A stretch of 64,000 nt of DNA, taken from assembly GCA_029858565.1 (NCBI GenBank), contig JAOUEV010000005.1:1-64000 (forward strand), written 5' to 3'. The stretch comes from Nitrospirota bacterium. GTDB taxonomy: Bacteria; Nitrospirota; UBA9217. Under the pieces are notes generated by a model. That model saw only the letters and a program-made list of their open reading frames with translations. It searched no databases and was not told the DNA's origin. How positions within the stretch are numbered: the first letter of the stretch is position 1; each line of letters starts with the position of its first letter. Both the position numbers and the translations under genes were made by a program. This document shows, one piece after another, positions 2,088 to 7,602 of the stretch.

Positions 2088-3665
2088 TTATATCTTGACC
2101 TGTTTTACCGAAAGCACGTTGGGGAGCTTCCGGATCTTGTCCATCACCGGCGCCGGGACCGCGCTGTCTATGCTGACCACGGACATGGCCCGCCCGCCCT
2201 GGGACTCCCTGCCGAACTGCATCCGCGCGATATTGATGCCGTTTTCGCCCATGAGCATGCCGATGCCGCCGATCACTCCCGGTTTGTCGTTATTCATGAG
2301 CACGAGCATGTCGCCATCAGGCACCGTTTCCATGGGGAAATTGTCCACCTGGATGATGCGCGGCTCTTTTTTGCTGTTCAGCGTGCCTGCTGCAGCGGTA
2401 TCCTTCCCGCCAGCCTTGATCCGCAGCGTGACGAGGCTCGTATACTCCGTCGTGTCGCGGGACGTGGAAACCTTCACTTCGATGCCCCGGTCCTTGGCGA
2501 TGAGCGGAGCATTCACATAGTTGACGTTCTCCTGGATCACCGGCGTGAGCAGTCCCTTGAGCGCCGCCAGGGTGATCGGCTCCTGCTTGAGCCCCGCCAC
2601 CTCGCCGCTGTATTCCACCACGACCTGCGTCAGGCCGCCCTCGGCCAACTGGCCGAGGAAGAGCCCCATACGCTCCGCCAGATTGATGTACGGCGAGAGC
2701 GTCGGAAGCTGGTCCGCAGGCACCGATGGGACGTTCACGGCGTTCCGCACGGTACCGGCGATGAGATAGTCCACGATCTGCTCGGCCACGGCCGTAGCCA
2801 CGTTCTCCTGGGCTTCACGCGTGGATGCGCCGAGGTGCGGCGTGGCGATGAAGTTCTCCAGCGTCAGGAGCGGGTGGTTCTCCGGCGGCTCCTTCTCGAA
2901 CACATCGAATGCCGCGGCGGCCACCTTGCCGCTCTTCAGGGCCTCGAAGAGGTCGCCTTCGTTCACGATCCCGCCGCGGGCGCAATTGATGATGCGCACG
3001 TTGTTCTTCATCTTGGCGATCGTGTCCTTGTTGATAAGGTTCGCGGTCTCCTTGGTCTTGGGCGTGTGCAGGGTGATAAAATCCGCGCGCTTCCAGATCG
3101 TCTCAAGATCAGCCAGCTCGATGCCCAGGGATTTCGCCTTCTCAGCTGAAATAAAAGGATCGAACGCCAGGATCTTCATGCCCATGGCTGCACAGCGGTT
3201 CGCGACCACGCCGCCGATGGCGCCGAGTCCCACGATGCCCAGGGTCTTGTCATAGAGCTCCACGCCCTCGAACTTCTTTTTCTCCCACTTGCCCGCTTTG
3301 AGCGAGGAGTAGGCCTGCGGGATCATGCGCGCGCAGGCGAAGATCATGCCGATGGTATGTTCGGCCGTCGTGACCGTGTTGCCGCCCGGGGTGTTCATCA
3401 CCACCACGCCCTTTTTGGTCGCCGCGGGAATCTCCACATTGTCCAGGCCGCTGCCGGCCCGGCCGATGACCTTGAGCTTCGCTGCCTTCTCCAGGAGCGC
3501 GGCGGTCACTTTCGTTGCCGAACGGATGATCAGTGCGTCATACTCACCGATCATCTTCTCGATCTCTTCCGCGCTCGTTTTGCTCCGGAACTCGACCTCG
3601 AGTCCGGCCTTTTTCAATATCTCGACCCCGTTGGCCGAGAGGTTATCGCTGATCAGCACCTTCAT
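2088..3665 (-). CDS. serA: D-3-phosphoglycerate dehydrogenase (long form with ASB/ACT domains)
   Basis: GRAGSGLDN, GLGAIG, INCARGG, TPHLGAST; C-terminal ACT DKPGVIG. Confidence 0.97.
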   Translation of the reverse strand: MKVLISDNLSANGVEILKKAGLEVEFRSKTSAEEIEKMIGEYDALIIRSATKVTAALLEKAAKLKVIGRAGSGLDNVEIPAATKKGVVVMNTPGGNTVTTAEHTIGMIFACARMIPQAYSSLKAGKWEKKKFEGVELYDKTLGIVGLGAIGGVVANRCAAMGMKILAFDPFISAEKAKSLGIELADLETIWKRADFITLHTPKTKETANLINKDTIAKMKNNVRIINCARGGIVNEGDLFEALKSGKVAAAAFDVFEKEPPENHPLLTLENFIATPHLGASTREAQENVATAVAEQIVDYLIAGTVRNAVNVPSVPADQLPTLSPYINLAERMGLFLGQLAEGGLTQVVVEYSGEVAGLKQEPITLAALKGLLTPVIQENVNYVNAPLIAKDRGIEVKVSTSRDTTEYTSLVTLRIKAGGKDTAAAGTLNSKKEPRIIQVDNFPMETVPDGDMLVLMNNDKPGVIGGIGMLMGENGINIARMQFGRESQGGRAMSVVSIDSAVPAPVMDKIRKLPNVLSVKQVKI

Positions 3666-5337: not shown

Positions 5338-6366
5338 ATGGAAAGAAGACCCAAGAACATATCAATAAGTCGGTCGCTGATCATCATCCTGGTGACCTGC
5401 GCTTTTGCACTGGGCATATTCATCGGCAGAGGATCGTGGCTCTTCGGTACGGGGGAATCCCGCGTCGACGGTCCTTTTCAGTTCTCCTCTGAGGATTTCC
5501 GCTATATCCGCCAGTCCCTGCAGCAGGAGTCAACACCGGAGGGGAAGAAAAAACGGGAACTGAAGCCGTTCCGCTACAAGGTTAATGCGCTCATCGAGCA
5601 AAAAGTGGCAGAGGAGTCGGCCAGCTCGATCTCTGTATATTTTCGCGACCTGGACAACGGGAACCGCTTCGGTATCAGAGAGCAGGACCTGTTCTCTCCC
5701 GAGAACCAGCTTAAGCTGCCGTTGCTGATCGCCTATTTCAAGTGGGCCGAGGCAACTCCGCTGGTTCTCAGGAAGAAACTGACCTTCACGGCGCCGGAGC
5801 GGTCAAAATACCGGTTCCTGACCCCGCCGAGCACCATCCAGCAGGGCACCGCATACAGCGTGAACGACCTCCTCTTCAGGATGATCGCCTACGGGGACAA
5901 TGACGCCTATTCCCTGCTCGCTGCGAATCTCCCGCCAAAACGGCTCCAGACCATCAACAAGGACCTCTACGTCAATTACGACCCCTCCAAGAAGGAGGAT
6001 TTCCTCTCGCTCAGCTCCTACGCGTCATTCTTCCGGGTCCTGTTCAACGCGTCCTATCTTTCCGAGGAAATGTCGGAGAAGGCCCTTCGCTATCTAACCC
6101 GCTCATCGTTCAAGAAGGGAATGGCATCGGCCGTTCCTCCGGAGATCGAAGTGGCGAACAAGGCTGGCGAGCGGACCATCGGTAGCGCATCGGGACAGGA
6201 GATCATGCAGCTTCATGAGTTCGGCATCATCTATCACCCGCGCAGACCGTTCCTGCTCGGGATCACTGCGCGGGGAGCGGACTACGATCAGCTCGTAACG
6301 GTCATTCGCGATATTACACGCCTGATCTATGAGGAAGTGGAGACGCAAACGGGCGAGGAATTGTAG
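5338..6366 (+). CDS. Membrane-anchored class A beta-lactamase-like protein, catalytic Ser absent
   Basis: N-terminal TM helix; SVYFRDL, ENQLKLP (SxxK position), GDN (SDN position), KAG (KTG position), HEFGIIY. Confidence 0.8.
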   Translation: MERRPKNISISRSLIIILVTCAFALGIFIGRGSWLFGTGESRVDGPFQFSSEDFRYIRQSLQQESTPEGKKKRELKPFRYKVNALIEQKVAEESASSISVYFRDLDNGNRFGIREQDLFSPENQLKLPLLIAYFKWAEATPLVLRKKLTFTAPERSKYRFLTPPSTIQQGTAYSVNDLLFRMIAYGDNDAYSLLAANLPPKRLQTINKDLYVNYDPSKKEDFLSLSSYASFFRVLFNASYLSEEMSEKALRYLTRSSFKKGMASAVPPEIEVANKAGERTIGSASGQEIMQLHEFGIIYHPRRPFLLGITARGADYDQLVTVIRDITRLIYEEVETQTGEEL

Positions 6367-6416
6367 CGGGACCATTCACGTGCCGGACAGGTTATGCGCG
6401 TCGGAATCCCGCCGCT

Positions 6417-6797
6417 TTAGGGAGTGATACGGAGTGCTACTGAAAGCGATACGACCGGTGCCGTCGAATCATTGGAGTGAATGGCGACATGTTTGGTCAG
6501 ATTGCCGGAACGGCCGCTCGTATCCACGGTCACTTTTACCTGCGCTGTAGCACCCGGCGCAATCCGCTCGGAGCTGACCAGCCCCGCAGTGCACCCTCAG
6601 GAGGCGCTGACCTTCCGGATCACCAGCTCGCCGGTACCGTCGTTTCTGATCAGGAAGAGGTGCTCCAGCTTATCCCCGGCCTTTACCGCCCCAAAATCAT
6701 AGCGCACTTCCGGCACGTAGATACGCGGGCCGGACGGCGCTCCGGCCCAGAGTACGGCAGGAACCAATACCATCAAAAGCAATACCCATCGCCTCAT
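6417..6797 (-). CDS. DUF1573 Ig-like secreted protein with in-frame UGA (probable selenocysteine)
   Basis: Signal peptide, YDFGAV...FLIRNDGTGELVIRKVSAS-UGA-GCTAG...IAPGATAQVKVTVDT...HSND...*; the frame stays open for 59 more codons to TAA at 6417-6419. Confidence 0.88.
6569..6586 (-). promoter_or_regulatory. Candidate bacterial SECIS hairpin
   Basis: CGGGGCU-GGUC-AGCUCCG starting 10 nt after the UGA; GU-containing apical loop similar to the E. coli fdhF SECIS. Confidence 0.72.
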
Positions 6798-6897
6798 AAA
6801 CAGCGGCCTCCGAAAGATATTTACCCCGTTCCGCTGCGTCCTGCAGGGGAAACGTCGGCGTTGCCGATCGAGAAGCACGGCGCGCTCCCGGCCTATA

Positions 6898-7602
6898 TCA
6901 GATGCCCATCTTCTTCTGTTCAATGACCCGGGCGAGCTCGTTGCGCAGGATAAGACCTTTTTCGATAAGAATGGCGGAGAGAGCTTCGATGACGATCCTT
7001 TGTGTCTTTACATCATTCCGGAGTTTTTCGAGGTCCTGCAGTTGCTGTGCCTGCTGCTGCTGCTGGTTCCATTCGGCCGTGGCAAAGTCGGGGATCTCGC
7101 GAACAAGCTCCATTTTACCCGAGGTCTTGGTGGTCTCGCGGAACGACGGCACGTCCTTGCGTGTCACCGGCTCGTTATCGTAATACTTCCTGATCGCGTC
7201 CTTGATCTCCGATGCCATGGAAAGGACCGGTTTGATGGTCATCCCGGTATTAAAGCGGATATTATCCATGGTGTCGATATCCATGGGATCGGACATGGCA
7301 AGCGTCAACGACTTCCCGTCCTTTTTCACCGGCATGACGCCGAATTTCTTGGCGATCTCCGGTTTAAGGAGATTGACCGTATCCGCGGGGATCTCCGGAT
7401 CGAAGAGGTTCACATAGGGGATATGCAGTTTCTCGGCGATGACCCGGGCGATATCCTCTTCCCGAGCGAACTCGAGCTCCACGATGATCGATCCCAGCTT
7501 GCCGCCCCAGTTCCGCTGATGGGAAAGCGCCGCCTCAAGCTGAAAATCGTCTATCAGGCCGGCTTCCTTCATCAGGTCGCCCAATTTTTTTCGTTCTGCC
7601 AT
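6898..7602 (-). CDS. Stand-alone MshEN/GspE-N-terminal domain protein (putative c-di-GMP receptor)
   Basis: KLGDLMKEAGLIDDFQLEAALSHQ...KLGSIIVEL tandem MshEN motif, LAMSDP; no ATPase domain. Confidence 0.85.
   Translation of the reverse strand: MAERKKLGDLMKEAGLIDDFQLEAALSHQRNWGGKLGSIIVELEFAREEDIARVIAEKLHIPYVNLFDPEIPADTVNLLKPEIAKKFGVMPVKKDGKSLTLAMSDPMDIDTMDNIRFNTGMTIKPVLSMASEIKDAIRKYYDNEPVTRKDVPSFRETTKTSGKMELVREIPDFATAEWNQQQQQAQQLQDLEKLRNDVKTQRIVIEALSAILIEKGLILRNELARVIEQKKMGI

Follow-up and report, generated by a model that had tools for sequence, protein, structure and literature searches.

The gene at positions 6417..6797 (minus strand) of the window, i.e. the whole stretch of 64,000 nucleotides analysed here (Nitrospirota bacterium, GenBank assembly GCA_029858565.1, contig JAOUEV010000005.1, positions 1 to 64,000), is very probably an intact gene for a small exported Ig-like DUF1573 selenoprotein, with a U-G-C motif in an exposed turn and with selenocysteine (Sec) insertion guided by a hairpin. 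In the mechanism that we propose, SelB and tRNA-Sec would decode the UGA at 6599-6597 as Sec with the help of a hairpin situated just downstream, and the product would be an Ig-like (ASH/PapD-like) DUF1573 domain bearing a signal peptide.

On the minus strand the frame starts with ATG at 6797-6795, meets an in-frame TGA at 6599-6597 and stops with TAA at 6419-6417; translated with TGA as U it amounts to 126 codons, Sec67 included, followed by the TAA stop. The list of open reading frames made with genetic code table 11 ends this frame at 6597 and starts it with TTG at 6923. A Shine-Dalgarno-like GGAGG motif, read from the sequence, is present 9 nt ahead of the ATG (6807..6811, minus strand), and the ATG at 6797 is therefore favoured over the listed TTG. 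After the TGA the frame reads GCTAGLVSSERIAPG...VTVDT...HSND. This read-through translation agrees with the preliminary description of this DNA, according to which the listed frame halts at the TGA yet the second half of the domain continues behind it. Indeed the Pfam domain DUF1573 (PF07610) matches residues 30-115 (6453..6710, minus strand), on both sides of residue 67, with an E-value of 3.9e-23 and a score of 81.7 bits that passes the gathering cut-off of 26.1; the match covers positions 5-90 of the 98 of the profile. The match to the HYDIN/VesB-like Ig domain obtained by profile search likewise crosses residue 67.

The motif S-U-G-C-T fits the [ST]-C-G-C-[TAS] of the family, U replacing the first Cys. 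Sec67 (UGA, 6597..6599, minus strand), which is read as such on the basis of the aligned TGA column and the Sec machinery, and Cys69 (TGC, 6591..6593, minus strand), placed by the orthologue alignment and the AF2 model, are the sole redox-capable residues of the product; G68 and C69 are kept without exception in the 30 orthologues. Sequence features indicate a probable signal peptide, MRRWVLLLMVLVPAVLWAGA, at about residues 1-20 (6738..6797, minus strand); these residues have a pLDDT of 52-59 in the AF2 model, and a comparable hydrophobic leader is found in 29 of 29 orthologues. From the hydrophobic N-terminal leader and from the fusion of sister proteins to c-type cytochrome domains we infer that this small DUF1573 protein is exported.

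The genome of the window (3.9 Mb in 144 contigs, the window being contig C85) has the Sec machinery on whose presence the preliminary description had made its selenoprotein reading depend. The genes selA (604 bits) and selB (389 bits) lie side by side on contig C101 and both exceed their curated cut-offs in profile searches, one tRNA-Sec (selC) was found on C73, and there are two selD genes with one in-frame TGA apiece (C3:2376-3290 and C14:90529-91446). Three molybdopterin-oxidoreductase (formate-dehydrogenase-like) genes also carry one TGA each (C7:7036-8307, C41:35919-37190 and C24:36781-38478); together with the two TGA-bearing selD genes they point to a sizeable selenoproteome.

The TGA is conserved at its place in the relatives. 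Among 61 related genomes searched, 47 gave a match, and each best hit from the window's taxonomic family holds exactly one TGA. This TGA stands at the same column, in the context [ST]-U-G-C-[TAS]-A, in all 30 loci of the first search. In named genome records we collected 80 loci: 24 with TGA, all from Nitrospirota MAGs, and 56 with TGC or TGT, of which 54 belong to other phyla (including Aminicenantes/Acidobacteriota, Ignavibacteriota/Bacteroidota, deltaproteobacteria, Chlamydiota and Aerophobetes) and two to Nitrospirota. In other Nitrospirota families, every Sec form that could be resolved has TGA at the motif column as well (14/14); three fetched loci, L141, L154 and L157, have no recognisable motif and were left out of the counts. 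The aligned TGA is thus present in 53 of 53 distinct Nitrospirota Sec-form genes, window copy included. The statement that the TGA occupies the place of the first Cys in the SCGC motif is borne out by these alignments, in which 56 distinct homologues have TGC or TGT and 52 other Nitrospirota genes have TGA at the identical column.

On the scale of the phylum, 128 of 301 sampled Nitrospirota genomes gave a hit at E<=1e-10. By hand count, the best hit has one TGA in 58/58 genomes of the window's family, in 37/70 of the others (the column being confirmed in 14 of these 37) and in 95/128 overall, while the remaining 33 have none. In a quick maximum-likelihood tree of 112 domains all 44 Sec rows fall on one side of a branch whose support is not strong (SH-aLRT 84), which agrees with a single origin of the Sec form of the Nitrospirota DUF1573.

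The window protein is as well kept behind the TGA as ahead of it: its identity to the consensus amounts to 0.60 in the downstream part and 0.56 in the upstream part, a ratio of 1.07 for a median of 1.02 in the other copies. The window copy keeps all invariant residues of the orthologue alignment, and nothing in these comparisons suggests a decay of the protein. The nucleotide itself was also seen in assembled reads. Contigs from a run that is possibly the source of this DNA match exactly and show TGA. A contig of 154 nt from another study (X4, depth 2.5) covers 6505-6657 and has no listed change at the TGA nor at nt 14-31 counted from it; its listed changes, at 6561 and 6564, concern the old register of the hairpin and the lower stem (see below). 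Two runs therefore have TGA, rather than TGC or TGT, one of them possibly the source and the other at 154 nt and depth 2.5. No RNA run holding the stretch of the gene was found among the runs listed.

We are thus highly confident, from the machinery, the aligned TGA and Cys homologues and the contigs, that the window gene is a real Sec gene, as the preliminary description had proposed. Gene calling with table 11 ends at the TGA, and among 5.8 billion predicted proteins only 2 full-length relatives were found at E<=1e-10, as might be expected for an ordinary stop, or for an assembly error replacing TGC or TGT, followed by a mere remnant of a frame. But a scarcity of full-length proteins is to be anticipated when gene callers truncate Sec genes at the TGA, and a same-column TGA in 53 distinct genes, a conserved downstream half, a covarying SECIS, a Pfam domain spanning the TGA and the TGA of both runs leave this explanation practically no chance; as far as the sequences go it is already contradicted.

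The SECIS was analysed on an alignment of the first 54 nt from the TGA onwards in 39 distinct Sec forms, i.e. the window copy and 38 relatives. The 39 Sec forms have a hairpin in common in which nt 18-24 from the UGA pair with nt 31-37 around a loop AGUUCN. In this register 96.7% of the 273 cells are paired, versus 17.6-48.0% when the 3' partners are slid. Compensatory changes occur in three of the seven pairs (GC/CG 29/10, AU/GC 22/16 and CG/UA 17/16), the observed covariation score was reached by none of 500 shuffles, and RNAalifold independently predicts the same hairpin. The seven pairs are complete in 32/39 Sec forms versus 1/56 Cys forms. For the 38 relatives the mean stability of the hairpin is -9.7 kcal/mol (range -13.0 to -6.0). 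The 14 Sec forms from other Nitrospirota families keep it too, with a loop (A/G)GUU(C/U)N; 13 have it, with 5 to 7 pairs out of 7, in an unchanged register, and in one it is shifted by a base. The hairpin accounts for couplings between amino acids, Ile..His versus Val..Arg, in the stretch -V/I-S-S-N/D-H/R- that it overlies.

In the window copy this common hairpin is a degraded remnant (nt 18-37; 6563..6582, minus strand): it has 5/7 pairs, a loop AGCUCC and a stability of -4.7 kcal/mol, each of the 38 relatives having a stronger one. Among the 53 Sec forms no other copy lacks GUU in the loop of the common register, and in the quick tree no terminal branch of its subclade is as long as that of the window copy (0.55, versus a median of 0.14 for all rows). 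Given this loop and this branch, Sec insertion may have been reduced or lost in the window lineage. Another hairpin is nevertheless present at nt 14-31 from the U of the UGA (6569..6586, minus strand), in which CGGGGCU (nt 14-20) pairs with AGCUCCG (nt 25-31) around the loop GGUC (nt 21-24). It begins ten nt after the UGA, has 7/7 pairs and a stability of -10.8 kcal/mol, and corresponds to the 7-bp hairpin with a GGUC loop reported in the preliminary description. In this new register the relatives average +1.9 kcal/mol, and each of the three bases peculiar to the window copy (nt 27, 30 and 31) adds to the strength of the new hairpin.

The position of the new loop is that of other SECIS elements of the same genome: its GG, at nt 21-22, falls within the nt 21-28 occupied by the loop GG of four other Sec genes. 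These loops are GGUCU at nt 22-26 in FdhA on C7, AGGUC at nt 23-27 in selD on C3, GGC at nt 21-23 in selD on C14 and GGG at nt 27-29 in the FdhA-like gene on C24. The predicted fold of the 66-nt stretch is no better than that of dinucleotide shuffles (z +0.73; 154/200 shuffles as good), so that in DNA as G+C-rich as this the hairpin, taken alone, is not above chance. What supports it is the comparison with the other SECIS elements of the genome and with the relatives. The minimum free energy structure extends the stem to nt 5-44 (6556..6595, minus strand), with 16 pairs and two 2-nt bulges; the lower part of this extended stem has no support from comparison. Metagenomes were scanned for closer relatives that could put the new hairpin to the test; the best hit had 45% identity and none was usable, and an Rfam scan of 6350-6900 on both strands gave one chance match to a snoRNA, below threshold.

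On these sequences the GGUC hairpin, a probable SECIS apical hairpin lying 4 nt closer to the UGA, has probably taken over from the decayed common SECIS; in the proposed mechanism it would do the job of the latter. The window copy would thus be a small natural example of the replacement of a SECIS hairpin inside a conserved coding stretch. The alternative, that the gene is on its way out in this genome, with a decayed SECIS, inefficient Sec insertion and mostly a 66-residue fragment as product, seems improbable to us. It draws on the weakness of the common-register hairpin (5/7 pairs and -4.7 kcal/mol, below all 38 relatives), on the loop GU of this register now being GC, on the long terminal branch and on one same-genus genome, 97% complete, without a match. 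Against this, 4 nt upstream there is a stronger hairpin (-10.8 kcal/mol), at a distance from the UGA like that of the genome's other SECIS elements, and the changes at nt 27, 30 and 31 all work in its favour. Moreover conservation is no lower behind the TGA than ahead of it and no invariant residue is lost, and a related strain (one contig, depth 2) has 10 listed differences in the 45 nt just past the stop and, within the range of the listing, none in codons 103-126.

We now come to the product. The AF2 model (pLDDT 89.2, pTM 0.76) predicts a seven-strand beta sandwich, with U67-G68-C69 in the turn between strands 58-65 and 70-74. The best structural match in a VIA-align search is PDB 2qsv (Z 15.2, rmsd 3.0 over 105 residues), which is also a weak match in sequence (E 5.6e-4); next come ASH/PapD-like domains with Z of 11-13, including HYDIN, CEP192 and VesB/VesC. 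The Ig fold announced in the preliminary description is confirmed by this model and by these matches. The fold match gives no function.

A useful clue is provided by sister families, i.e. Nitrospirota families other than that of the window. The 13 long forms found there (9 Sec and 4 Cys) all consist of DUF1573 followed by a cytochrome c domain, PF13442, with E-values from 1e-15 to 5e-9 (loci L139, L140 and L142-L148 for Sec; L065 and L149-L151 for Cys). The fused domain is C-terminal, about 95 residues long, and has two CxxCH motifs 21 residues apart; a nearly invariant His precedes the first of them, and Met-Pro follows the second. This fusion to cytochrome c places the DUF1573 domain in the periplasm. 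Five other Sec forms and the whole family of the window are stand-alone DUF1573 proteins; the window protein stops where its Ig domain does, at residue 126, and has neither CxxCH nor a cytochrome domain. No mention of a DUF1573-cytochrome c fusion was found in the literature searched.

At four Cys-form loci a gene for a DsbA-like thioredoxin-fold protein overlaps the start of the DUF1573 gene (L065:2360-2986, L081:2387-3001, L149:1885-2526 and L150:3373-4002); the cytochrome fusion is confirmed at three of these loci, the DUF1573 gene of L081 itself not having been scanned. No DsbA-like neighbour was seen beside any Sec form examined. An AIRS-family gene located upstream of the DsbA gene was considered as a SelD and rejected: it is more likely PurM, since a formyltransferase gene follows in L151. 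A search of the window genome for a free-standing counterpart of the fused cytochrome part gave no clear one, the matches being weak and generic (E 1e-5 to 4e-3). The cbb3-oxidase-like gene of C13 and the monohaem cytochrome of C41 that it returned both lack the paired CxxCH and were set aside. On C13, positions 2172-3110 form a 313-residue frame resembling fused cbb3-oxidase cytochrome subunits, with CNNCH and CQMCH, in a genome of otherwise anaerobic appearance (Sec formate dehydrogenases, FlpD-type genes).

The exchange of Sec and Cys at one column is typical of redox-active sites. Combined with the fused cytochrome c, it favours a periplasmic redox couple. In the mechanism that we propose the U-G-C turn would cycle in the periplasm between selenol/thiol and selenenylsulfide, trading electrons with c-type cytochromes; we favour this selenol/selenenylsulfide couple over the other mechanisms considered, though tentatively. 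The window family being without the cytochrome part, any partner would act in trans, and the redox reading is thus inferred from domain fusions in other families. The more general proposal that the U/C-G-C turn of DUF1573 is an unrecognised periplasmic redox module working with c-type haem (a selenol/thiol:cytochrome c pair), free-standing in the window family, is conceivable if doubtful. Bolder still, and very improbable, Sec or Cys would be an axial ligand, or a covalent carrier site, at one of the two haems.

The main rival to the redox reading accepts a real selenoprotein and sees in the U-G-C turn a soft-metal site (Cu(I), Hg, Zn or similar), the protein being a periplasmic metal chaperone or scavenger. 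CxC motifs do bind soft metals in other proteins, and the published selenoprotein lists, in the parts available, hold several metal-handling families with UxxC. We hold it to be rather unlikely, because no metal-handling gene adjoins the gene at any locus with scanned neighbours, because the orthologue alignment has no conserved His or Met beside the motif, and because the fusion partner (cytochrome c) and the neighbour of the Cys form (DsbA-like) both point to electron or thiol chemistry. For a family left without a function for almost twenty years, the recurrent cytochrome fusion and the DsbA-like neighbour represent a concrete lead that can be tested.

The gene neighbourhood of the window copy is less informative. 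Upstream lies the gene of a 234-residue MshEN-domain protein (6898..7602, minus strand; PF05157, E 1.3e-22), whose N-terminus, KLGDLM..GLI....L..AL..Q, resembles the c-di-GMP-binding MshEN motif. The preliminary description had placed the selenoprotein gene directly downstream of a MshEN gene. That gene is real and its position is conserved within one family, being adjacent in 27/27 informative same-family loci and in 22/22 informative named Sec loci, but it is adjacent in 0/56 Cys-form loci and in none of the 17 scanned loci of other Nitrospirota families. Missing from every locus examined outside one family, it does not indicate a functional link, and MshEN was rejected as a functional partner, its synteny being confined to one taxonomic family. 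The order TtcA-like, MshEN, DUF1573 is conserved across this family. On the other side, a gene of the beta-lactamase family, identified by profile match, is convergent (5338-6366, opposite strand). These neighbours, MshEN, TtcA-like and beta-lactamase family, say nothing on redox chemistry. In the related strain (run X2, one contig, depth 2) the ten listed differences fall in 6374-6418, a gap of 45 nt that separates the two convergent genes; through one of these changes the stop codon TAA becomes TGA, and none is listed in the adjoining coding ends.

Elsewhere the neighbourhoods differ. Those of the Cys forms of other phyla have no common theme and consist of housekeeping or unrelated genes: TsaE/TsaB/AccD, AccB/AccC/Mfd, Rrf2 with a porin, or YggT/DUF167/Usp. 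The Ignavibacteriota/Bacteroidota Cys form has two domains, with two C-G-C motifs about 110 residues apart, and always lies between TsaE/TsaB-like genes and accD (loci L070, L082, L085, L086, L094, L098, L100, L103, L105, L111, L114 and L119). A gene for PCMT (protein-isoaspartate O-methyltransferase) adjoins the Sec form at four loci representing three Nitrospirota families (L144:3782-4510, L146:1986-2714, L147:3740-4381 and L156:2307-3017), and DksA does so at three loci of a fourth family (L139, L140 and L145).

The preliminary description left open whether the family was already catalogued as Sec-containing. It is. OS_HP2 is named among six new selenoprotein families of Olavius symbionts (Zhang & Gladyshev 2007, PMC1976440), its original members coming from deltaproteobacterial worm symbionts (PMC1976440), and the survey of GOS in 2008 lists "OS_HP2, pfam07610, UxC" (PMC2398784). 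The selenoprotein tables of two reviews hold the same family (PMC9312934 and PMC13188914), and published lists carry the entry "DUF1573 domain-containing protein, UGC"; going by the passages available from these sources, the DUF1573 family entered the lists from sequence only. Since the family, with the same motif, has been on selenoprotein lists since 2007, the reading of the window gene is a correct catch of low novelty and not a new kind of selenoprotein. No paper on the function of DUF1573, PF07610 or OS_HP2 was found in a full-text literature search.

The window branch is nevertheless poorly covered by current annotation. The best NCBIfam match of the window protein is NF041425, "OS_HP2 family (seleno)protein", with 80.8 bits, below the cut-off of 100; this match spans positions 1-94 of the 98 of the profile, across the U-G-C motif. 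All 30 orthologues match NF041425, the best at E 6.5e-25, but likewise below the 100-bit cut-off. These scores make the window branch a sister branch rather than a member by NCBI's rule, and the NF041425 model would not name it. The scarcity of full-length relatives and the scores below the cut-off together indicate that the Nitrospirota branch is probably cut at the TGA in public annotation. Gene callers cut the window gene at codon 66, and a whole branch of a listed family would thus be largely missing from protein databases. Judged against the available parts of the catalogue papers, what goes beyond them is the dominance of the Sec form in the sampled Nitrospirota, the cytochrome c fusions and the shifted SECIS. 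The taxonomic spread of the family may already be given in supplements of the reviews or of papers cited there; the parts worth keeping are the cytochrome c fusions and the shifted SECIS of the window copy.

With OS_HP2 the window protein shares PF07610, a Sec in place of the first Cys of C-G-C, a SECIS-like hairpin after the UGA and the existence of Cys homologues; it differs by its Nitrospirota branch and by a score below the NF041425 cut-off. With 2qsv (an uncharacterised protein of Porphyromonas gingivalis), HYDIN and the C-terminal domains of VesB/VesC it has the fold in common; 2qsv and the ASH/PapD-like domains, unlike the window protein, are without C-G-C at the aligned place. The fusion proteins of the sister families share its domain, its U/C-G-C column and, in the Sec forms, the SECIS register, and differ from it by the extra cytochrome domain with two CxxCH. 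For the bolder haem-ligand reading the comparison is with sulfur-oxidising cytochromes, in which Cys-ligated haems occur. The SECIS of E. coli fdhF, finally, is a stem-loop directly after the UGA, with GGUC in its apical loop, the G-U step being some 22-24 nt away from the U of the UGA. Its sequence is unrelated to that of the window, in whose hairpin no bulged U can be assigned, but the two elements resemble each other in lying directly 3' of the UGA and in carrying GGUC in the apical loop.
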